Origin: PVC group bacterium
GTDB lineage: Bacteria > Omnitrophota > Gorgyraeia > B26-G9
Assembly: GCA_024231215.1 (NCBI GenBank)
Contig: JAAEQR010000072.1
Span: 129,210-193,209, forward strand
DNA length: 64,000 bases
Direction of reading: 5' to 3'
Both the position numbers and the translations under genes were made by a program. A model generated the notes under the pieces. It was not told the DNA's origin. It did not search any database and worked only from the letters and a program-made list of their open reading frames with translations. Below, piece by piece: positions 1,949-54,454 of the stretch (the stretch's first letter is position 1; every line of letters starts with the position of its first letter).

Positions 1949-3961
1949 ATGTTTGTTCAAGTCACGGTAAATTTACCTTTAAAGAATATATTTGATTACT
2001 CTGTTCCGCAACATTTGGAAGATTCAGTGGATGTTGGTAAACGGGTATGGGTTCCTTTCCGTAATCGTGTTATTGTCGGCTGTATAATTAATATTAATTC
2101 CAACACAAATATTCGTAATACAAAAGCAATAAAAGAAGTTATTGATGAGACTCCACTTCTATCCGATGATATTCTGAGGTTAACTCATTGGATGGCTGAT
2201 TACTATTTTTGTTCCTGGGGAGAGGCGATAGAAGCGGCAATCCCCAGTCCGTTTAAAAAGGGAAAAACTTCAATCCGGACCAAGATAGCAGAATCTGATT
2301 TTTTAACTTCTGAACATCCAGATGATTTGGTGCGTGAGGATATGTTAACTCTGCATCAGAATAAAGCGCTTACCGAGATTATTAACCATATTAAGACCGG
2401 AGAGTACGGAGCATATCTTTTGCACGGGATCACAGCGAGCGGAAAAACAGAGGTGTATTTTCGGGCGATAGAGGCGGCATTAAAAAAAAATAAAACAGCA
2501 ATTGTTTTTGTGCCGGAAATAGCGCTTACCCCGCAGACGATCGAACGTTTTATTCACAGATTCGGCAAAGATGCAATTGCGATTACGCATAGCCGGTTAA
2601 GTAATAGTGAAAAATTCGTGGAATGGCAGAGGATAAAAAATGGTGAAGTAAAAATAATGATCGGGCCTCGTTCGGCTATTTTTAGTTCTTTGGAAAATAT
2701 CGGGGTGATTGTGGTGGACGAAGAGCATGAGAACACTTATAAACAGGAAGATGTTCCTCGTTATAATTTGGTAACCACAGCGATTAAACGTGCGCAGATC
2801 ACAAAAGCGGTAGTGATCTTAGGAAGTGCTACCCCTTCTTTGGAATCAACATATAAAGCTCAAACAGGAATCATTAAACGAATTGAACTTCCCGAACGGA
2901 TAAAGGGTAGTGATTTACCAACTGTGCAAATTGTTGATATGCGGGAGCAGTCCAGGATATTAAAACGCCGGCCGATAATCTCCAAGGTTATGGAAGATAA
3001 TATTAATCGCTCTTTACAGAAAAAAGAGCAGGTTATTCTTTTTCTTAATCGGAGGGGGTTTTCCACGTTTATACACTGTTCCAAGTGCGGCTATGTAGTG
3101 CATTGTAAACGCTGTAGCACAGCTTTGGTACATCATTTTGATAGAGAGAGTTTGATTTGTCATCATTGTGATTATAAAACATCTTTACCCAAGATGTGTC
3201 CGGAATGTAATGGCGATTATCTGCGTTATTTTGGGACAGGAACCCAAAAAGTAGAAAGTGAACTGCATCGCTTATTTCCAAATGCCAGGATTGGGCGTAT
3301 GGACTCAGATACCTTGGCGAAAAAAACAGCGCATTTTGAAGCATTTAAAGATTTTAAATCCAGAAAAATAGATGTTATGGTTGGGACTCAGGTGCTGGCC
3401 AAAGGACTTGATTTTCCTAATGTTACTCTGGTGGGTGTAATTTCTGCGGATGTAACTTTAAATATTCCTGATTTCAGAGCATCAGAGCGTACTTTTTCTT
3501 TGCTTACACAGGTGGCTGGAAGAGCGGGAAGAGGTAAAGCCCCGGGAAAAGTTATAATTCAAACATATACACCCGAGCATTATGCGATCCAGTGCGCACT
3601 TAAGCATGACTATGATAGTTTTTATGAGCAGGAAATGGTTTTTAGAAAACAATTGAAACTTCCACCGTATATCAATATGGCAGCTTTGAATTTGCGTTCG
3701 AAAAAAGAGCAGAGTGTAATAAAAACAGCTGAAGTCTTAGCAAATATGTTACGCAAGCATAATAAAGCGGATAAAATGATTATTATGGGGCCGTCACCGT
3801 TACCTATTTATAAATTGCGTGGTTATTTTCGCTGGTCGATAGTTGTTAAACATAGTGATGCTTTAACAATAAATAAATTTTTAAGAATGTGTCTTGGGCG
3901 ATGGAAGGTTCCGGCGCAGGTTAAGCTGGCGGTGGATGTAGATCCGAGAATGATTATGTAG
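1949..3961 (+). CDS. priA: primosomal protein N' (replication restart helicase)
   Basis: Walker A GITASGKTEV, DEEH box (VVDEEHE), double Cys4 zinc-binding cluster CSKCG...CKRCS...CHHCD...CPECN, and a C-terminal helicase domain. 670 aa. Confidence 0.85.
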   Translation: MFVQVTVNLPLKNIFDYSVPQHLEDSVDVGKRVWVPFRNRVIVGCIININSNTNIRNTKAIKEVIDETPLLSDDILRLTHWMADYYFCSWGEAIEAAIPSPFKKGKTSIRTKIAESDFLTSEHPDDLVREDMLTLHQNKALTEIINHIKTGEYGAYLLHGITASGKTEVYFRAIEAALKKNKTAIVFVPEIALTPQTIERFIHRFGKDAIAITHSRLSNSEKFVEWQRIKNGEVKIMIGPRSAIFSSLENIGVIVVDEEHENTYKQEDVPRYNLVTTAIKRAQITKAVVILGSATPSLESTYKAQTGIIKRIELPERIKGSDLPTVQIVDMREQSRILKRRPIISKVMEDNINRSLQKKEQVILFLNRRGFSTFIHCSKCGYVVHCKRCSTALVHHFDRESLICHHCDYKTSLPKMCPECNGDYLRYFGTGTQKVESELHRLFPNARIGRMDSDTLAKKTAHFEAFKDFKSRKIDVMVGTQVLAKGLDFPNVTLVGVISADVTLNIPDFRASERTFSLLTQVAGRAGRGKAPGKVIIQTYTPEHYAIQCALKHDYDSFYEQEMVFRKQLKLPPYINMAALNLRSKKEQSVIKTAEVLANMLRKHNKADKMIIMGPSPLPIYKLRGYFRWSIVVKHSDALTINKFLRMCLGRWKVPAQVKLAVDVDPRMIM

Positions 3962-27290: not shown

Positions 27291-27377
27291 GCGGAGATGG
27301 TGGAATTGGCAGACACGCTAGCTTGAGGGGCTAGTGGGAGCAATCTCATGAGGGTTCAAGTCCCTCTCTCCGCACCA
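27291..27377 (+). tRNA. tRNA-Leu (anticodon GAG)
   Basis: Acceptor stem GCGGAGA/TCTCCGC. Anticodon stem CTAGC/GCTAG with loop TTGAGGG. Long variable arm, T-loop GGTTCAAGTCC, encoded CCA. Confidence 0.85.
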
Positions 27378-27494: not shown

Positions 27495-27606
27495 AAATAT
27501 TAAATATAAATTTGGGGATACGAAGTGAAACGTCCTTATTTCTCCATATAAGGCGTTAATAAGAAGACCCCTACTTCCCCCGTTCTTCGTATCCCCTTTT
27601 TTTTGT
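27495..27606 (+). repeat. structured terminator-like repeat element, copy 1
   Basis: AAATTTGGGGATACGAAG ... CCCCTACTTCCCCC ... CTTCGTATCCCC followed by TTTTTTTT. The 12-bp closing stem is perfect. Confidence 0.6.
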
Positions 27607-27610
27607 TAGA

Positions 27611-27724: not shown

Positions 27725-27826
27725 TATATAAAATTTTTAAATTTGGGATGCGAAGATTAGATTCGCCTTATCCCCTAAGGCGATTATTGGCCCCTACTTC
27801 CCCCTATCTTCGTATCCCCTTTTTTA
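27725..27826 (+). repeat. structured terminator-like repeat element, copy 2 (possible attenuator in the leader of the 27854 gene)
   Basis: AAATTTGGGATGCGAAGA ... CGCCTTATCCCCTAAGGCG ... CCCCTACTTCCCCC ... TCTTCGTATCCC followed by CTTTTTT. 12-bp stem with one G-U pair. Ends 28 nt before the RBS/TTG of the next gene. Confidence 0.6.
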
Positions 27827-27853
27827 TACCCATTTCTTTGGGGGGAGCTTAAT

Positions 27854-29494
27854 TTGACAGATTTTTATAAGAAATTACAATATGCCAGCCTAATTTTGAT
27901 CATCTTTTCATGTATTTCCCCCGTAAGTGCCCAAGAAGAGACATTTCTAAAAACCAAAATTGAAAAAATTGGTAATTCTAAGCGAAGTGAAATTAATCAG
28001 ATAAATCAGGTATTACGTAATCTGGATATTCCCAAAGAAATAGGTATGGTTAAAGAAACTTATATGCCTCGCAGTCCGAAGGCTAATCTTATTATTACAA
28101 TTCAGGATTTACATTGCCATTATCAAGCCCAAAAAAACATTGCTGCTATACTAAATTATCTTACTAATAATTTTGCGTTAAAACTTATCAGTATTGAAGG
28201 GGGCGCAGGTCCGATCGATACGGTGTTTTACCGTGAGTTGCCGGATGAAAGAATCAAAGAACAGGTAGCAGAATATTTTTTAAAAGAAGCTCGTATTAAC
28301 GGTACAGAGTATTTTGCGATAACGACAAATAAAGAAATTGCGCTTTATGGAGCTGAAGATTCTAAATATTATGATTGGAATTTAGAGGCGTTTTTAGATG
28401 CTTTGCCGAAACGGGAAAAAATACTTAAAGATGTTGCGGTTTTAGAAAATGCACTGAATATCTTGAAAGATCGTATATATAATAAGCGGTTAAAAGAATT
28501 AGATAATTATATAGTTGCTTATGAAAATAAAACGATATCATTTGAAGACTATATTTTAAATATAGAAAAACAGTATTCTAAGACTAAACTAATTAGAGAT
28601 TTTAAGCAGGTTGCTCAACTTGCCGAAAGTATTCATATAAAAAGAGAAGTTAATTTGGTAGCAGCAGAAAAACAACGAGGTGAATTAATTGATTATTTAT
28701 CAACAAAATTGCCCAGGAGAGAATTAGAAGAATTTTTACGAATCACTTTAGAGTTTAAGACCAAGACGGTAAAGGCATCGGAGTATCATAGTAAACTGAA
28801 AGAACTTTATGAGAAGACTATTGAAAAAACAAAGACTTTTGAACAGAATTGGCCGGATCTTAGTGAATATATCGTTTATTTGGATAAATATGAGACGTTG
28901 GATGATATTGAGCTTTTTAATGAAATAGATAAAGCTTTGGATGGAATAAAAAATAGTCTATATACAAGTTATACTCAAAAAAAGTTAGACCGAAATTTAA
29001 CAATAATACGCTTAGCGAGAAACCTTTTCTCCACAAAATTACTGCCACGGGATTTGCCGATAATCGATAAATATCGTAATGAGTTCAATGCGAAAAAAAT
29101 GGCTAAATTTATTAAACGTCAATCAAGAAGATTAACCCTTGATTTGCCGGTTCCAGCAGAATTAGAAGATATAGAAGATACTTTGCCGATGGTGGAAGAT
29201 TTTTATTATTATGCTTCACAGCGTAATGAAATTTTAGTAGACAATACTCTGGCATATATGAAGAAAGAAAACCAAGATGTGGGAATATTAATAACCGGTG
29301 GTTTTCATACCGATGGGATAACCGAGGATTTACGCGATAAACGTATTCCGTATGTTGTAGTAATTCCTCAAATAGATGCTCTTGAAGAGAATGATACTCG
29401 TTATATTGATGCCCTGAAGGGAAAAAAGACCCGTTTTGAAACAATGTTGGAAGGGGCAACTGATTCTGTACGAGATTTCTATTTTGGGAAGTAA
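27854..29494 (+). CDS. exported TraB/GumN/TIKI-family protein (putative)
   Basis: TTG start preceded by GGGGGAG. Signal peptide present. C-terminal VGILITGGFHTDGITEDLRDKRIPYVVV resembles the TraB/GumN GxxHLxG...V motif. Confidence 0.35.
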   Translation: MTDFYKKLQYASLILIIFSCISPVSAQEETFLKTKIEKIGNSKRSEINQINQVLRNLDIPKEIGMVKETYMPRSPKANLIITIQDLHCHYQAQKNIAAILNYLTNNFALKLISIEGGAGPIDTVFYRELPDERIKEQVAEYFLKEARINGTEYFAITTNKEIALYGAEDSKYYDWNLEAFLDALPKREKILKDVAVLENALNILKDRIYNKRLKELDNYIVAYENKTISFEDYILNIEKQYSKTKLIRDFKQVAQLAESIHIKREVNLVAAEKQRGELIDYLSTKLPRRELEEFLRITLEFKTKTVKASEYHSKLKELYEKTIEKTKTFEQNWPDLSEYIVYLDKYETLDDIELFNEIDKALDGIKNSLYTSYTQKKLDRNLTIIRLARNLFSTKLLPRDLPIIDKYRNEFNAKKMAKFIKRQSRRLTLDLPVPAELEDIEDTLPMVEDFYYYASQRNEILVDNTLAYMKKENQDVGILITGGFHTDGITEDLRDKRIPYVVVIPQIDALEENDTRYIDALKGKKTRFETMLEGATDSVRDFYFGK

Positions 29495-35522: not shown

Positions 35523-35954
35523 GGGGGTGAAAGGTTTCGACTTAGGTTAATTTAGTAAGAGCAGCATGTCGAGGTGGTCGGGAGGCCTCGTAAAACACCT
35601 GACAAACACATAAACGCTGAAAGTAAAATTCCAGCTAGCGTAGATTCACTCATTTCAAAAATTGGTGAGGGTATTTCTCATCCGGTTTTTGGAGGAATGG
35701 CTCTAAGCCCAAGTGTTGCTTTAAGATAAAGCAACCCGCTTTTTAGTGAGTGTCTGTGGCATTAAAAAGCGTCATAAGCAGGCTCGTTAAATATGGTTAG
35801 TTTTTGACATATTTGATTAAACATTTCAAAAGCTGCCTTTGCAAGTATCTTGTTTGTCGGAGACTTGTTGAGAAAGATTAAATGACAGACTAAACATGTA
35901 GATACTCTTATTGGTTTCTTAAGGACGCGGGTTCAATTCCCGCCACCTCCACCA
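35523..35954 (+). ncRNA. ssrA: tmRNA (ssrA)
   Basis: 5' GGGGGUG pairs with 3' CACCUCC-ACCA, with a G3-U70 wobble. 3' tRNA-like end GGACGCGGGTTCAATTCCCGCCACCTCCACCA. Candidate resume codon GCU at 35616. Confidence 0.85.
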
Positions 35955-46886: not shown

Positions 46887-47447
46887 ATGAGTGCAAAAGA
46901 GATACTTACTAAGTCAGAAGATAAGATGGGGAAATCTGTTGAAGTATCAACCAGGGAGTTTAGTACTATAAGAACCGGCAGGGCAAGTGCGGCGTTGGTA
47001 GAAGGTATTCGAGTGGATTATTATGGAACTCCGACTCCTTTAAAACAGCTAGCTGGTGTTTCTACTCCGGAAGCGCGTTTGATTGTAATTCAGCCATGGG
47101 ATCCATCTTGTATTGGCGATATTGAGAAAGCTATTTTAAAGTCAGAATTGGGTATTACTCCATCTAATGATGGGAAAGTAATTCGTTTAAGTGTACCGCC
47201 CTTGACTAAAGAACGCAGAGCGGAGCTGGTTAAGGTTGTTCATAAGCTAACTGAGGAAGGCCGTATTTCGATACGTGGTGTTAGACGAGAGGCAAATGAA
47301 CAGATAAAGCAGGAAGAAAAAAAGAGTAGTATTACCGAAGACGAAAGTTTTAAAGCTCAGGAAGATGTCCAAAAGCTTACGGATAAATATATAAAGCAGT
47401 TAGAAGATTTTTCAAAGAAAAAAGAATCTGAAATAATGGAAGTTTAA
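46887..47447 (+). CDS. frr: ribosome recycling factor
   Basis: Collinear with RRF (…EFSTIRTGRASAALVEGIRVDYYG…). 186 aa. Confidence 0.9.
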   Translation: MSAKEILTKSEDKMGKSVEVSTREFSTIRTGRASAALVEGIRVDYYGTPTPLKQLAGVSTPEARLIVIQPWDPSCIGDIEKAILKSELGITPSNDGKVIRLSVPPLTKERRAELVKVVHKLTEEGRISIRGVRREANEQIKQEEKKSSITEDESFKAQEDVQKLTDKYIKQLEDFSKKKESEIMEV

Positions 47448-47453
47448 ATGTGT

Positions 47454-47529
47454 GGGCCGCTAGCTCAGTTGGCAGAGCATCGCCCTTTTAAGGCGGGTGT
47501 CGAAGGTTCGAGCCCTTCGCGGCTCACCA
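47454..47529 (+). tRNA. tRNA-Lys (anticodon TTT)
   Basis: Acceptor GGGCCGC/GCGGCTC. Anticodon stem TCGCC/GGCGG with loop CTTTTAA. T-loop TTCGAGC. Encoded CCA. Confidence 0.85.
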
Positions 47530-47683
47530 TATTAATACTTCCAAGGGTTCGAATCGAAGTTGAACGCCGAGCAAGTGCGAGGAAAAGCGAGCAGGACTGT
47601 GAGCGGCAGTGAAACGAGGCGGGCCTGCGCAGCTCTCAACAGGAAGTTGTGAGCGTAGTAGGCGAGCCCTTCGCGGCTCACCA
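47530..47683 (+). repeat. tRNA-associated GC-rich element X (copy 1, ~133 nt) plus 21-nt duplicate of the tRNA-Lys 3' end (positions 56-76)
   Basis: CGAGCCCTTCGCGGCTCACCA(TA) occurs at the end of tRNA-Lys and again at 47663-47683. The intervening sequence is about 90% identical to the element after tRNA-Val. Confidence 0.8.
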
Positions 47684-47696
47684 TACATTCTGTTGC

Positions 47697-47774
47697 GTCC
47701 CCATCGTCTAGCCAGGTCTAGGACAGTAGATTTTCGATCTACCGACAGGGGTTCAAATCCCCTTGGGGACGCCA
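47697..47774 (+). tRNA. tRNA-Glu (anticodon TTC)
   Basis: Acceptor GTCCCCA/TGGGGAC + G. Anticodon stem GTAGA/TCTAC with loop TTTTCGA. T-loop TTCAAATCC. Collinear with typical bacterial tRNA-Glu. Confidence 0.8.
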
Positions 47775-47782
47775 AAAAATTA

Positions 47783-47812
47783 AGGTCACTCGAAAGAGTG
47801 GCCTAATTTTTT
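47783..47812 (+). terminator. rho-independent terminator after the tRNA-Lys/tRNA-Glu cluster (A-tract upstream, possibly bidirectional)
   Basis: AGGTCACTC-gaaa-GAGTGGCCT followed by AATTTTTT. Confidence 0.6.
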
Positions 47813-47984
47813 GTTCGGACACAAGGGGATGGTCAAAAGGGTCTACGGGGAAAAGACTGTTTTTCCCGTTCGGCGTACTGGAGCCCAAAACGGAAAGAAA
47901 AGGAACAGCGACCGAAGGGAGCGATAGGGAAAAACCATAAGGGTTTTTCTCTATGGAGTGATCTCGCCAAAGGCGGGAGAACGA

Positions 47985-48062
47985 CTCCCCTGGGGACGTT
48001 GATTGCTTATTGCGAAATCACGACGTTCAAATCCCCTTGCGACACGACCCCCTGGGGACGTC
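47985..48062 (+). repeat. scattered partial duplicates of the tRNA-Glu 3' end
   Basis: CTCCCCTGGGGACG and GTTCAAATCCCCTT...CCCCTGGGGACGTCA match the tRNA-Glu T-arm/acceptor (GGGGTTCAAATCCCCTTGGGGACGCCA). Confidence 0.6.
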
Positions 48063-48301
48063 AAAATTACATGTGATGCTTTTAAGTTTCATCTTAACCA
48101 TTGACTTTTACGACGACTAATCATAAAATAAACTTAAATTATGTTAAACCCGAACTATGCATTAGGCTGCGGCGAATAGCATTAATCTTTGCCATACCAC
48201 AGAGGGGATGCCTGTATTTTTTGTAAGTATTTTATCTCAAAAATCTTAGCACTCTTCATCCGCCTTCTAATACATAATCCGGGTTAATAAAGAGGTAAGT
48301 T

Positions 48302-49258
48302 ATGGGTATTATGGACGAAAGTTATATAATGGATCAAATCCCCGTAAATATTACGCTTGCTTTAGGCGGGGGTGGTGTTCGCGGTCTTGCTCATATCGGA
48401 GTAATTAGAGCATTAGAAAAGATTACTCCAATTAATATGATTTCCGGGACAAGTATGGGCGCAATTGTTGGAGCGATGTATGCACTTAATCCGGACATTG
48501 AGAGGGTCGAAGAATTATTGATGACGCTTCTTGATAAAAAAGAGGTTAAGGAGATTGAACGATTGATTAGCGGGCATACTCCGGTAGAAGAGAAAAAACT
48601 AATTGTCCAGGGACTGCTTACCTTTGTAAAAAAGATGTATTTACTTAATTTGCGGGCGATAAAGAGATGGGTATTTAGTGGTAAAGAAATAACATCAATG
48701 TTTGGAGACCTGGGGCTGGATACTGATTTTAAACATGCTAAGATACCGATTTCCTGTGTAAGTGTGGATTTGCGTACCGGAGATGAAATAGTATTGAGTA
48801 AGGGGGCGATTATGGAGGCAGTACTAGCCTCGGTATCTTTACCCGGAGTTTTTCCTCCGGTGAAAAAAGGAAAACGTCTTTTAGTTGATGGTGGAATAAT
48901 CAGCAGTGTACCGGTAGATGCAGCAAGGAAGTTGGGAGGAGATATAGTTATTGCCATTGGGGTGGAAGCACAGGTTGATTATAATAAGAAGCTGGGGAAT
49001 GGATTTGATATAATGTTTCAGGCAGATGCGATAAGAGCTCGCAAATTAGCTGAAATAAAATTAGCTCAAGCGGATCTCGCTATCTGTCCCAAGGTGGGGG
49101 CGATTGGCTGGGCTAGTTTTTCGCGGGCAACTGAATGTATCGAGGCTGGGGAAAAAGCAGTTGAAAAAGCAAAGCCGAAAATCCTAGAGTTAATTAAGAA
49201 AAAGAGACGGGAAAAGTTTTGGAAAGGATTTTTCTCTTTTCCTAATTATAAAGAGTAG
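48302..49258 (+). CDS. patatin-like phospholipase
   Basis: LALGGGGVRGLAHIGV (Gly-rich oxyanion loop), GTSMGA (GxSxG serine) and DGG (catalytic Asp). Confidence 0.75.
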   Translation: MGIMDESYIMDQIPVNITLALGGGGVRGLAHIGVIRALEKITPINMISGTSMGAIVGAMYALNPDIERVEELLMTLLDKKEVKEIERLISGHTPVEEKKLIVQGLLTFVKKMYLLNLRAIKRWVFSGKEITSMFGDLGLDTDFKHAKIPISCVSVDLRTGDEIVLSKGAIMEAVLASVSLPGVFPPVKKGKRLLVDGGIISSVPVDAARKLGGDIVIAIGVEAQVDYNKKLGNGFDIMFQADAIRARKLAEIKLAQADLAICPKVGAIGWASFSRATECIEAGEKAVEKAKPKILELIKKKRREKFWKGFFSFPNYKE

Positions 49259-52077: not shown

Positions 52078-54048
52078 ATGTGTGGAATAGTTGGATATAT
52101 TGGAAAAAAGAATGCAGTGCCGATTTTAATGGATGGTTTAAGCAGCCTTGAATATCGAGGATATGATTCAGCTGGCATAGCTGCAATGGATAAAGGCCAG
52201 CTTTGCATGTCAAAACGAGCAGGTAAGTTAAAGATTTTAGCCGAATGCCTTAAGAAAAATCCGGTAAAAGGAGCGATTGGGATAGGTCATACGCGCTGGG
52301 CTACGCATGGTGAGCCCAACGAAATAAATTCACATCCCCACTATAGCTGTAAGAGTGATTTTGTAATCGTGCACAACGGGATTATTGAAAACCATCATGA
52401 ACTAAGAGAAAAGCTAAAAAAAGAAGGGCATAAATTTCGTTCTCAAACAGATACTGAAGTTGTTGTCCATTTGATTGAAAAGCTTTATAAAGGTAATTTG
52501 CTCAAAGCAGTTTGTGCGGCAATTCGGCAGCTGCACGGTAGCTTTGCTTTGGGAGTAATCAGTACGCATCACCCGGATATGCTGGTTGCTGCACGTAAAG
52601 ATAGTCCGCTTATTGTGGGCGTAGGTAAAGGAGAGAATTATATAGCTTCTGATGTGCCGGCAATATTGAAATATACAAGAGAAGTTATTTATCTTGATAA
52701 TAACGAAGTTGCGGTTTTAACACGTGACAAGGTTGCTTTATATAACACTAAAGAAGCGCCGATAAAGAAAAAAACGGCAAAGATTAAATGGGATTCAGCT
52801 AGTGCTGAAAAAGCCGGATATCCTCATTTCATGATCAAGGAAATCAACGAACAGCCGCAAGTATTAAAAACCATCTTAAATCACAGGATAAAAGGTAATC
52901 GTGTAGTTTTCGAGAAATTCAATATCTCAGAAGCAAAATTAAAAAAAATTAATAATATTCAGATTGTTGCTTGTGGCACAGCTTATCACGCGGGCTTATG
53001 CGGTAAATATATTTTAGAAAAATTGCTTAGGTTACCTATTAATGTGGATACATCAAGTGAATTTCGTTATCGTGATCAGATTATCACAAAAGGCAGGACA
53101 TTGATTATTGTGGTAAGCCAGTCAGGAGAAACAGCAGATACCTTAGCTAGTTTAAGAGAAGCGAAGAAAAAAGGCGCAGTAGTTGCTTCTATTTGCAATG
53201 TTGTAGGTAGTTCTATTGCTCGGGAATCAGATGGAGTGATTTATACCTTAGCTGGTCCGGAGATCGCCGTGGCGTCGACTAAAGCCTATACAGCTCAGTT
53301 AACTACATTTTATCTTCTAGGTATTTATCTAGGGCGTATTTATGGTACAGTTAGTGATAAAGCAACAAAGAAATTGTTGGGGGAACTGGCCAAAGTTCCT
53401 GGACTGATGACCCAGAGTCTTAAAGAACATAAAAAAGTCAAAAAAGTTGCTGATCAGTATATTAGAAGGTATGACTATAGATTAGCTGAGCAGTTAATGT
53501 TTTTAGGGGATGAAATTTGGCGGTTTAAAGATCCTAAAAAAGCGCTTGCATTTGCTCAACAATGTGCTAAAAAATCACATTCTGCTTATGGTAAGCGGTT
53601 CGGAGATTTTCCTTTCTTGTACCTTGGACGGAACGTTAACTATCCTAGTGCCTTAGAAGGAGCCTTAAAACTTAAAGAAATAACCTATATTAGTGCAGAA
53701 GGCTATGCTGCCGGAGAGATGAAGCATGGACCGATTGCACTTATCGACGAATTTCCACTGGTTGTATGTATTACTCCTCAGTCTGCAGTTTATGAAAAGA
53801 TGCTTTCGAACATTAAAGAGATTCGGGCGAGAAAAGGTGTAGTTTTATCTGTAGCCACAGAAGGGGATAAGGAAATCAGGAAAAAAGAATACTCTGATTA
53901 TGTTATAGAGATTCCAAAAATTGATGAATTCTTCTCCCCGTTGCTAGTAGCATTACCGTTACAGTTATTGTCCTATTATATTGCGGTGGGTTTAAAATGT
54001 GACGTAGACCAGCCGCGAAATCTAGCTAAGAGCGTTACTGTAGAATAG
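52078..54048 (+). CDS. glmS: glutamine--fructose-6-phosphate aminotransferase
   Basis: MCGIVGYIG Ntn-amidotransferase start, two SIS domains, and a C-terminal ...KSVTVE. Confidence 0.9.
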   Translation: MCGIVGYIGKKNAVPILMDGLSSLEYRGYDSAGIAAMDKGQLCMSKRAGKLKILAECLKKNPVKGAIGIGHTRWATHGEPNEINSHPHYSCKSDFVIVHNGIIENHHELREKLKKEGHKFRSQTDTEVVVHLIEKLYKGNLLKAVCAAIRQLHGSFALGVISTHHPDMLVAARKDSPLIVGVGKGENYIASDVPAILKYTREVIYLDNNEVAVLTRDKVALYNTKEAPIKKKTAKIKWDSASAEKAGYPHFMIKEINEQPQVLKTILNHRIKGNRVVFEKFNISEAKLKKINNIQIVACGTAYHAGLCGKYILEKLLRLPINVDTSSEFRYRDQIITKGRTLIIVVSQSGETADTLASLREAKKKGAVVASICNVVGSSIARESDGVIYTLAGPEIAVASTKAYTAQLTTFYLLGIYLGRIYGTVSDKATKKLLGELAKVPGLMTQSLKEHKKVKKVADQYIRRYDYRLAEQLMFLGDEIWRFKDPKKALAFAQQCAKKSHSAYGKRFGDFPFLYLGRNVNYPSALEGALKLKEITYISAEGYAAGEMKHGPIALIDEFPLVVCITPQSAVYEKMLSNIKEIRARKGVVLSVATEGDKEIRKKEYSDYVIEIPKIDEFFSPLLVALPLQLLSYYIAVGLKCDVDQPRNLAKSVTVE

Positions 54049-54097: not shown

Positions 54098-54174
54098 GGG
54101 CGCGTGGCACAGTTGGTTAGAGCACCTCCCTTACAAGGAGGGGGTCGTAGGTTCGAGTCCTACCGCGCCCACCA
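54098..54174 (+). tRNA. tRNA-Val (anticodon TAC)
   Basis: Acceptor GGGCGCG/CGCGCCC. Anticodon stem CCTCC/GGAGG with loop CTTACAA. T-loop TTCGAGT. Encoded CCA. Confidence 0.8.
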
Positions 54175-54326
54175 TGAGTTTACCTGACGGACTCGAATCG
54201 AGTTGAGCGCCGAGCAGGTGCGAGGAAAAGCGAGCAGGACTGTGAGCGAAAGCGAAACGAGGCGGGCCTGCGCAGCGAACAACAGGAAGTTGTGAGTGTA
54301 GTAGGCGAGTCCTACCGCGCCCACCA
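54175..54326 (+). repeat. tRNA-associated GC-rich element X (copy 2) plus 21-nt duplicate of the tRNA-Val 3' end (positions 56-76)
   Basis: CGAGTCCTACCGCGCCCACCA(T) occurs at the end of tRNA-Val and again at 54306-54326. The core ...TCGAATCGAGTTGAGCGCCGAGCAGGTGCGAGGAAAAGCGAGCAGGACTGTGAGCG... is shared with copy 1. Confidence 0.8.
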
Positions 54327-54376
54327 TTTTCCCAGTAAGGGGAAATAGTTCGATACAAATATAAGACTAAATTTTT

Positions 54377-54454
54377 GGAGCCGTAGTTCAGCTGGTTTAG
54401 AACGTCGGACTGTCGATCCGAAGGTCGCGGGTTCGAACCCCGTCGGCTCCGCCA
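54377..54454 (+). tRNA. tRNA-Asp (anticodon GTC)
   Basis: Acceptor GGAGCCG/CGGCTCC. Anticodon stem TCGGA/TCCGA with loop CTGTCGA. T-loop TTCGAAC. Encoded CCA. Confidence 0.8.

Follow-up and report, generated by a model that had tools for sequence, protein, structure and literature searches.

Small protein-free folded elements behind tRNA genes of Omnitrophota: two families, one of them at tRNA-Glu, that may be non-autonomous insertion elements

Introduction

The question raised by the locus described here is what lies behind the transfer RNA (tRNA) gene for glutamate, tRNA-Glu(UUC), in the genome of a bacterium of the Omnitrophota. In a 64-kilobase (kb) stretch of contig JAAEQR010000072.1, the whole of which is called the window below, the terminator of this gene is followed by a segment in which a preliminary description, made without database searches, had noticed further pieces of the tRNA-Glu 3' end together with several hairpins and no open reading frame (ORF). 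It took these as marks either of a recurrent recombination or integration hotspot or of a family of tRNA-adjacent structured RNAs. The segment proved to be a genuine folded element, conserved and without protein-coding capacity, with copies of the tRNA 3' end at its flanks, and there is in our judgement an even chance that 47815-48063 holds a copy of a gene-less structured insertion element, named type 2 in what follows, that is anchored at the 3' end of tRNA-Glu. Behind the tRNA-Lys and tRNA-Val genes of the window lie copies of another and commoner element, type 1, and the two types constitute two previously undescribed families of small elements behind tRNA genes in Omnitrophota, the only group in which either was met in this survey. 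Both halves of the earlier proposal are thus supported, in a form refined to two element families.

Results

The folded segment behind tRNA-Glu

Fragments of the tRNA-Glu 3' end span 47987-47999, 48025-48039 and 48049-48063 (the features of the locus are collected in Table 1). The 15-mer GTTCAAATCCCCTTG, which lies inside the tRNA gene at 47751-47765, recurs exactly (15/15) at 48025-48039, and these 15 contiguous identities exceed the 12 that the preliminary description had itself set as the limit for chance matches. The number of matches to this 15-mer expected by chance in the 64-kb window is 0.01, and two or more were seen in 0/100 shuffles. The sequence CCCCTGGGGACG, present at 47987-47998 and 48049-48060 and, with one mismatch, in tRNA-Glu, gave a similar result (0.03 matches expected; three or more in 0/100 shuffles), and 48048-48066 is identical to the end of tRNA-Glu at 17 of 19 positions. 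A chance origin of the repeats is ruled out by the shuffle tests, and the fragments reported downstream of the terminator are real. Their counterparts elsewhere in the two tRNA clusters are longer: an exact 23-nucleotide (nt) repeat of the tRNA-Lys 3' end (47509-47531 and 47663-47685) and an exact 22-nt repeat of the tRNA-Val 3' end (54154-54175 and 54306-54327). No 3'-end duplication accompanies tRNA-Asp (54377-54454), so that three of the four tRNAs carry one, as had been stated.

Also as first described, the segment behind tRNA-Glu is structured, and it is free of ORFs over 47815-47980. Its 252 nt fold with an energy of -92.6 kcal/mol (z = -3.46 against shuffles), the two hairpins quoted earlier are present as hairpins 1 and 2 of the core, and no conserved reading frame was found in type 2, the homologue at locus L009 (loci are numbered with the prefix L) having stops in all six frames. 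The parts of type 2 follow one another in the order terminator, tRNA-Glu-antisense arm, core, right-end motif GCGAC(AC)GAC and tRNA-Glu 3' fragment; a conserved GGCGU may pair over 5 base pairs (bp) with an ACGCC of the tail, and every copy lies at tRNA-Glu. The terminator hairpin is the apex of an imperfect palindrome (47757-47830) with 35-nt arms, 47757-47791/47796-47830, which are 74% complementary as an inverted repeat and which pair the tRNA 3' end with the type-2 arm. The arm is shortened in the window and fuller in homologues (GGGATTTGAAC in L009; AAGGGGATTTGAA, 13/13, in L027). At L013 the equivalent palindrome is nearly perfect, running from T54 to position 72, and the arm there extends the terminator stem.

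Relatives of the locus were found through homologues of the downstream patatin-like protein, the genomic contexts of which were then compared. This comparison, of the kind the preliminary description had called for, established that the segment has homologues at tRNA-Glu in three other Omnitrophota assemblies. A frr - tRNA-Lys - tRNA-Glu - patatin locus with a clear type-2 homologue is present in L009/L010, where the patatin-like protein is 77% identical. An nhmmer profile was built from the window and L009, so that the matches of the window (1.5e-47) and of L009/L010 (1.3e-58) follow from its construction; the independent matches are a full copy in L027 (E = 1.7e-17) and a 3' half in L024 (E = 3e-5), and a relic of the right junction only is left in L029. 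The core with hairpins 1-3, the T-loop-antisense arm, GCGAC(AC)GAC and the tRNA-Glu 3' fragment were all found. In an alignment of three sequences, 10 pairs of hairpin 1 are retained, 5 through compensatory double changes, and 13 of hairpin 2, 6 through double changes and with no cell left unpaired; the share of paired cells over the whole fold is 93%, whereas shifted-partner controls reach 43-63%.

The right end of the window copy is nested and decayed. In junction copy 1, ACGAC is followed by TCCCCTGGGGACGT, a tRNA-Glu 3' fragment in which one T has been lost and C74 has become T, and the junction of L027 takes the same form (CGACACGAC followed by CCCCTGGGGACGCCA). Beyond a window-specific hairpin, CACGAC of junction copy 2 is followed by GTTCAAATCCCCTTG, identical to the present tRNA-Glu; the L009 junction reads GCGACACGAC and then GTTCAATTCCCC. 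A 14-nt insert, CGACACGACCCCCT, then splits the tRNA-Glu duplicate, the remainder of which, GGGACGTCA, follows it. With the insert taken out the sequence becomes GTTCAAATCCCCTTGGGGACGTCA, one mismatch away from the tRNA-Glu 3' end, and read across the insert region (48040-48063) it yields junction copy 3, CGACACGAC followed by CCCCTGGGGACGTCA. Because junctions 1 and 3 have two derived changes in common (the lost T and C74 to T), they are copies of each other and not independent tRNA copies. The right end therefore preserves at least two layers of rearrangement, and with its shortened arm and three nested junction copies the window copy of type 2 looks old. A split of the duplicate between T-stem strand and acceptor strand is also seen in L013 (24 nt) and L004 (~75 nt).

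The Glu segment is not a divergent type-1 copy. The type-1 covariance model, R1, run with filters off over 47775-48070, gave nothing at E < 10 except the tRNA T-arm, and in a blastn-short comparison of the type-2 segment with type-1 copies similarity was limited to the tRNA fragments. It is a separate family that has its architecture and short end motifs in common with type 1: type 2 and the type-1 copies at tRNA-Glu are alike only in the arm GGGGATTTGAAG and in the right-end motif (A)AGATGCGAC, the right ends reading AAGATGCGAC in L009 and L024 (type 2) and GGAAGATGCGAC in the tRNA-Glu type-1 copies of L001 and L022.

The type-1 family

Two features went beyond the preliminary description, namely the arm complementary to the T-loop and the homology of the tRNA-Lys and tRNA-Val inserts to each other. 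These inserts (~130 nt) are 88% identical overall and 91% over the core, and a 31-mer of the core occurs in the window at these two sites only; a possible decayed second arm lies at 54346-54356, beyond the Val element. Among 185,579 species-representative genomes, a 20-mer of the core was found at 8 loci, all 8 in metagenome-assembled genomes (MAGs) of Candidatus Omnitrophota and 7 directly 3' of a tRNA gene (L003 is without one). Further copies came from a metagenome scan and the covariance model; the scan gave 7 loci, of which L016 and L019 are chance matches in high-GC coding DNA. Full type-1 copies stand behind the tRNAs for Lys, Val(UAC), Val(CAC), Met, Ala, Glu, Tyr, Gly, Gln and Leu.

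The layout is the same in every copy: an intact tRNA, a spacer or terminator, the arm, a core of ~110 nt, GTAGTAGG, and a tRNA duplicate running from C56 to about position 76. The spacer is variable and is replaced by the terminator of the tRNA where this is the last gene of its operon. The arm ends in GAA and, starting opposite T54, is the complement of its own tRNA for 8-19 nt (mean 10.8), with mispairs of the G:T type only, and the duplicate is exact from C56 through N73-A76, often extending a few nt into the trailer. To the left of C56 the tRNA reads GGTT and the element junction TAGG, the TT being exchanged for a GG that pairs inside the core.

In the consensus fold of 17 distinct copies, 94.7% of cells are paired and 22 of 35 pairs have compensatory changes, figures that come from an alignment fitted to the model; none of 500 column shuffles was as good, and shifting the partner by 1-3 columns left 31-40% paired. 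An independent RNAalifold run on nine copies returned the same structure with 15 compensated pairs. The arm pairs with positions 57-64 of the duplicate, and the resulting helix stacks on the core helix GGCCTGC:GTAGTAGG-C56, which covaries to GGTTAC:GTGAC-C and GGCTAC:GTAGC-C in copies at tRNA-Glu. Since G:U pairs are common and A:C pairs rare, the tRNA-sense strand is the folding strand. The G+C content of type 1 is 57-59%, against 37% for the genome. For the single-stranded tail of type 1, no pairing partner varying with the tRNA was found. A small protein was considered and rejected, the 30-amino-acid ORF of type 1 being broken by 1-nt indels between copies.

Several type-1 variants were seen. 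A copy at tRNA-Gln (L015, 1032-1275) has an insertion of ~100 nt in its second small hairpin; L003 (191-342+), where the upstream tRNA is absent, has an extra hairpin of ~40 nt; and L004 (2917-3140) has other sequence in place of the central hairpins, and ~75 nt interrupt its duplicate. The sequence GAACCACTCACT(G)ATGTTCGGG is common to L002 and L005, directly after their type-1 duplicates.

Occupancy of tRNA sites and divergence of copies

Related genomes differ in what their tRNA sites hold. The tRNA-Lys site has a full type 1 in the window, an arm stub in L011 and nothing in L001, L013 and L022; the tRNA-Glu site has type 2 in the window, L009 and L027, type 1 in L001, L006, L013 and L022, and neither in L011; the tRNA-Val(UAC) site has a full type 1 in the window and L007 and an arm with a 24-nt stub in L021. 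Such truncated arm-plus-stub relics, behind tRNAs for Thr, Lys and Val (L011 2238-2275; L018, tRNA-Thr; L013 ~2255-2290; L021, tRNA-Val, minus strand), retain no more than ~7-27 nt from the start of the type-1 core and lack the duplicate, and three of the four break at a similar core position. At L013 copies are stacked, a full type-1 copy being followed by a second terminator, arm and stub. Stacked and truncated copies at several loci fit repeated events at one site.

In L009 and L027 the order is A-B-A', with the core (B) between the full (A) and the repeated (A') tRNA 3' end and terminator. In L009 the core stands between two nearly perfect copies of a 79-nt unit that comprises T-loop, 3' end, terminator and arm, and L027 and L001 have a similar but more diverged flanking repeat. 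The length of the duplicate thus varies from about 20 to 79-100 nt, the 79-100-nt cases being L009 and L001, and such variable-length duplication at the DNA level fits recombinational insertion better than it fits fixed target duplication or RNA selection. Where the tRNA copy and the downstream duplicate are unlike (L017, L009, L027), the arm matches the tRNA copy, as expected if arm and upstream copy travel together.

Core identity is 96-97% between orthologues (96% for the Val copy of the window and its orthologue in L007), 90-91% between different tRNAs within one genome and 75% between the tRNA-Tyr copies of different genomes. Paralogues within a genome are thus closer than Tyr copies between genomes, which indicates either spread within genomes or gene conversion.

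Neighbouring genes and database searches

The neighbours of the locus are housekeeping genes only, rpsB, tsf, pyrH and frr on one side and genes for a patatin, an AsmA protein and an amidohydrolase on the other. No cas12k, tnpB/tnpA, tnsB/C or tniQ was found in the ORF map of the 64-kb window or in the flanks of ~30 loci, and no autonomous parent with a gene between the ends was found among ~20 type-1 and 4 type-2 loci. L025, from the MAG that also contains L002, holds at 399-797 a gene for an IS200-like Y1 transposase (PF01797) with CCCGGGCTTTAGCCCGTGGG hairpins on its flanks. The gene has been inserted next to the remains of a tRNA-Glu 3' end and terminator, upstream of the patatin gene, and its sequence is unrelated to types 1 and 2.

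With Rfam 15, whose families include group I introns, self-cleaving ribozymes, IS605-orfB/omega RNAs and tRNA-like RNAs, only tRNA and tmRNA (transfer-messenger RNA) pass the gathering thresholds in the window; in a permissive scan of 47440-48300 (E up to 10) the best other matches were ylbH (21.1 bits, threshold 50) and sR17 (13.1 bits, threshold 36). Two type-1 patterns had no match in viral contigs, and blastn against phage and plasmid collections gave none for either type; on these grounds an origin from a phage, plasmid or virus was rejected. A literature search on Omnitrophota tRNA-linked RNAs or elements returned nothing relevant.

Table 1. Positions in the window of the elements, their parts and the tRNA genes that they follow
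Feature	Position	Strand	Basis
Terminator-like hairpin (47783-47804) and T run	47783-47813	+	Terminator scan
Type 2, shortened arm AAGGGGAT, complementary to tRNA-Glu ATCCCCTT	47823-47830	+	Sequence, homologues
Type 2, core	47831-47980	+	nhmmer match 47820-47999 with L009/L010, L027, L024
Type 2, hairpin 1, GGGGAAAA/TTTTTCCC	47845-47869	+	
Type 2, conserved unpaired TCGGCGTACTGGA in core	47870-47882	+	
Type 2, hairpin 2, ATAGGGAAAAACC/GGTTTTTCTCTAT	47924-47954	+	
Type 2, GGAGTGA in core	47955-47961	+	
Type 2, hairpin 3	47962-47980	+	
Type 2, junction copy 1 (ACGAC, then TCCCCTGGGGACGT)	47981-47999	+	
Type 2, window-specific hairpin	48000-48020	+	
Type 2, junction copy 2 (CACGAC, then GTTCAAATCCCCTTG at 48025-48039)	48019-48039	+	
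Type 2, 14-nt insert CGACACGACCCCCT splitting the tRNA-Glu duplicate	48040-48053	+	
Type 2, remaining tRNA-Glu 3' end GGGACGTCA after the insert	up to 48063	+	
tRNA-Lys(UUU), intact, host of a type-1 element	47454-47529	+	ARAGORN; Rfam tRNA 62.3 bits
tRNA-Glu(UUC), intact, host of the type-2 element	47697-47774	+	ARAGORN; Rfam
tRNA-Val(UAC), intact, host of the second type-1 element	54098-54174	+	ARAGORN
tRNA-Asp	54377-54454	+	ARAGORN
Type-1 element after tRNA-Lys	47533-47685	+	Covariance model R1, 161.7 bits, E = 3.5e-43
Lys type 1, arm AAGGGTTCGAA	47543-47553	+	
Lys type 1, core end GTAGTAGG	47655-47662	+	
Lys type 1, 23-nt duplicate	47663-47685	+	
Type-1 element after tRNA-Val	54177-54328	+	R1, 167.6 bits, E = 8.6e-45
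Val type 1, arm GGACTCGAA	54189-54197	+	
Val type 1, GTAGTAGG	54298-54305	+	
Val type 1, 22-nt duplicate	54306-54327	+	

Other features of the window and its relatives

Two copies of an unrelated hairpin repeat of ~100 nt, TTTGGGGATACGAAG...CTTCGTATCCCCTTTTTT, lie at 27504-27610 and 27734-27833 (+), between tRNA-Leu (27291-27377) and an ORF that starts at 27854; they give weak R1 matches (11.2 and 8.1 bits) owing only to their hairpin shape. A third conserved non-coding module behind tRNA terminators, CCATA[AG]G[GT]GAAAACG[TA]AGTTT[TC]CCCC ... CCCCTAAAAA[TG]G[AT]GTGAC..GTCAC, was seen in L007 (~870-1060), L008 (~3085-3200) and L024 (~20-190). The tmRNA gene of the window (35523-35954) is 432 nt long against a model of 374 positions, and its 30-nt 3' flank, TTCGACGTGGTTGCTCATGGTGAACCAG, has a TTCGAC..GCTCATGG..A[AG]CCA motif in common with the flank of a tRNA-Met (L002, 2268-2310). 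Upstream of the tRNA-Val/Asp cluster (54098-54454), the ORF at 52078-54048 has an N-terminal sequence that looks like glmS. The Val type-1 copy would thus lie downstream of a putative glmS, a region favoured by Tn7-like elements, which is probably coincidental.

Discussion

How did a folded, gene-less core come to stand between an intact tRNA gene and a second copy of the 3' end of that gene, behind so many different tRNAs? Our working hypothesis, to which we assign a probability of about one half, is that the two types belong to a family of non-autonomous insertion elements that home to the T-loop and 3' end of tRNA genes and regenerate it. The mobile unit would begin with a tRNA copy from T-loop to 3' end, continue through the native spacer or terminator and through an arm that can pair with the T-loop and the T-stem's 3' strand, and finish with the folded core. 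Its point of entry would be the T-loop (position 55/56 in type 1, about 52/53 in type 2), so that the tRNA would stay intact and its original 3' end would be displaced downstream as a direct repeat. Since the elements encode no recombinase, any movement must be the work of an enzyme acting in trans. Were the unit single-stranded, whether as RNA or as DNA, the arm would pair with T-loop positions 57-64 and so place a short duplex copy of the target beside the core helices, and this arm/T-loop duplex may be the feature that is recognized. The architecture, its conservation and covariation, the matching of arms and duplicates to their tRNAs, the presence or absence of elements among relatives and the stacked and truncated copies are observed; mobility, the insertion point, the single-stranded intermediate and the trans-acting enzyme are what we infer from them.

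Integrating elements are known to regenerate the tRNA gene that they use, leaving a displaced 3' fragment (PMC4383910; PMC9897764). On the insertion reading the gene is here too kept intact and the old 3' end displaced, and the logic of the elements is that of tRNA-integrating islands. The likeness to such islands (tyrosine integrases; Islander-type attL/attR) extends to insertion in the 3' part of the tRNA, a replacement 3' end, a displaced direct repeat and the repeated use of one tRNA with stacking of copies. An intact tRNA with a displaced 3' direct repeat was found at Lys (23 nt), Val (22 nt) and Glu (15 nt, and 17/19), and at other loci as well. Known tRNA islands, however, are kilobases long, 9-121 kb, and carry their own integrase (PMC9897764). 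The elements described here measure 130-250 nt, have neither an internal integrase nor any conserved ORF and, unlike islands, possess a conserved folded core and a T-loop-antisense arm. They work most like tRNA-integrating elements but lack the integrase that defines that family. The absence of the two T-loop Ts from the type-1 right junction is, moreover, hard to square with the identical overlap regions that tyrosine recombinases need, although, identity between type 1 and the tRNA beginning at C56, a crossover further 3' is possible.

Enzyme-less mobile units have other precedents. Integron attC sites and the attP(+) hairpin of CTX-phi, which uses XerCD, are folded single-strand sites that rely on an enzyme encoded elsewhere. 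Formally, they resemble the present elements as enzyme-less units with a strand-specific imperfect hairpin that imitates the target duplex, tolerance of mispairs and tandem products. They differ in their target, which is attI or dif and not a tRNA T-loop; the integron core site GTTRRRY had no match here, and the large conserved multi-helix core has no counterpart in attC. Miniature inverted-repeat transposable elements (MITEs) and the REP/REPIN, Correia and RPE repeats are likewise small, gene-less, multi-copy, structured, intergenic and lineage-specific. The ends of our elements (the arm on one side, GTAGTAGG or GCGAC(AC)GAC on the other) are not inverted copies of each other, and the length of the duplication is not fixed, so that they are no MITEs in the narrow meaning of the term; unlike MITEs, they are strictly associated with tRNA 3' ends and have an arm and a duplicate tailored to their own tRNA.

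A number of points weigh against insertion. Terminal inverted repeats are absent, as is a fixed-length target duplication, and no recombinase, transposase or reverse transcriptase was found in or beside any copy. Neither a circular junction nor a filled/empty polymorphism between near-identical strains was seen, and no constructed model explains how a copy at a new tRNA gains a matching arm and 3' end. The similarity of cores within a genome could stem from gene conversion instead of movement, and the case for type 2 is built on just three full homologues, every one of them at tRNA-Glu. Between orthologues the identity of the core is 96-97% and that of the neighbouring patatin protein only ~72-74%, and the duplicate follows two tRNA substitutions (L022 against L001), one of which weakens arm pairing. 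Cores so well kept and a duplicate that tracks its tRNA point to purifying selection, and hence to a function rather than a merely selfish insert. Finally, each type-1 copy of the window is part of a tRNA operon (Lys-element-Glu, Val-element-Asp) in which no terminator separates it from the following tRNA, and is therefore almost certainly transcribed.

These last points lead to a serious rival, which we regard as possible but distinctly less probable: that the elements are functional non-coding RNAs made from tRNA operon transcripts and not currently mobile, the core being released by tRNA-processing enzymes. The arm would pair with T-loop sequence and the 3' tail would act as a mimic of the acceptor 3' strand, a decoy or a guide, and possible roles include competing for a tRNA 5' half or for a protein that binds 3' ends, or sensing T-loop fragments. 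To the conservation of orthologous cores and the position of the window copies between co-oriented tRNA genes may be added the strength of the type-1 structure signal (94.7% paired, 22/35 compensated, 0/500 shuffles), the maintenance of the type-2 hairpins through compensatory changes, folding by the tRNA-sense strand, a G+C content far from that of the genome (57-59% in 37%), and the duplicate itself, which is kept at positions 56-73 between the window and L007 and tracks the tRNA substitutions between L022 and L001 despite weaker arm pairing. Against this, copies after an operon-final tRNA (Glu, Gly) sit behind terminator hairpins and T runs, with no promoter-like site seen; duplicates reach into the non-functional trailer and are split by insertions in three loci (the window, L013 and L004); stubs, stacked copies and presence or absence among relatives resemble the turnover of inserts; two unrelated cores with like ends occupy one site; and no Rfam family match lends a function.

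It is improbable, in our view, that the elements are guide RNAs of an RNA-guided homing system, with the core as scaffold and the 3' duplicate as a spacer-like guide against the tRNA gene. The layout of type 1 does resemble the scaffold-5'/guide-3' arrangement of TnpB and Cas12 guide RNAs. In every tRNA the target is preceded by G53-T54-T55, and the type-1 duplicate always begins at C56, directly behind the universal GGTT, whereas the scaffold/guide junction is without TT, GG taking its place; the duplicate, moreover, changes along with its tRNA. CRISPR-associated transposons of types V-K and I-F are reported to home beside tRNA genes by means of a delocalized CRISPR RNA (crRNA), and the C56 start after GGTT recalls the tRNA-homing guides of the type V-K systems (PMC11656645). 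Both the TnpB omega/reRNA of IS200/IS605 right ends and type V-K crRNAs have a structured scaffold followed by ~20 nt identical to adjacent or target DNA, and a further shared feature is a target beside GGTT within the 3' portion of a tRNA gene. Yet neither TnpA, TnpB or Cas12k nor Tn7-like genes (tnsB/C, tniQ) were found at any of the ~30 loci, neither element matched IS605-orfB or any other Rfam family, and the start of the would-be guide, its first 8 nt, is paired with the arm. The identity is variable in length and runs into the trailer, the type-2 duplicate begins at G53 or C61 and not at C56, and the element adjoins its own target, as known guides do only within a much larger transposon.

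Very improbable is the explanation that the locus is the scar of an ordinary large integrative element, a prophage or genomic island, whose interior was deleted to leave attachment sites ~250 nt apart. A regenerated tRNA with a displaced 3' fragment is indeed the classic signature of such elements (PMC4383910; PMC9897764), but at least four assemblies share the sequence and the structure of the interior, the layout recurs at more than 10 tRNAs with a common core of ~110 nt, nothing similar occurs in phage and plasmid collections or viral contigs, and independent deletions would not yield the same 130-nt product every time. We can all but dismiss a 5' leader or riboswitch controlling the patatin-like gene (48302-49258), for although a structured ORF-free segment with a sub-threshold match to the ylbH leader (21.1 bits, gathering threshold 50) does lie upstream of it, the best promoter-like site for that gene (48101-48129) is downstream of the segment, a GIY-YIG gene stands between the type-2 element, which stays with tRNA-Glu, and the patatin gene in L027, sequence or genes intervene between element relic and patatin gene in L024 and L025, and orthologous loci have a different element, or none, before the same gene.

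Returning to the elements as a family that may insert at tRNA 3' ends, we put forward with considerable doubt a bolder proposal, that they form a new class of tRNA-homing elements, each with a programmable two-part module for the T-loop region of one tRNA, or else a tRNA-specific RNA sensor or mimic. The module would consist of the arm, antisense to T-loop positions 54-64, and a sense copy of positions 56-76, which together would make a folded replica of the target duplex beside a scaffold, and the enzyme acting in trans would use it for nucleic-acid-guided insertion.

The elements account for the unusually long, G+C-rich spacers in tRNA operons of Omnitrophota, and their duplicates are liable to be mis-called as tRNA fragments or pseudogenes. 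If mobile, they would be smaller than any other element known to enter tRNA genes and repair them in the process, doing so without an enzyme of their own and with a part tailored to each tRNA, and they would point to an unrecognized targeting mechanism, with a folded strand or an RNA as its guide, in a phylum that has been little studied. Should they instead be functional RNAs, they would represent a new and abundant class of RNA paired one-to-one with individual tRNAs.

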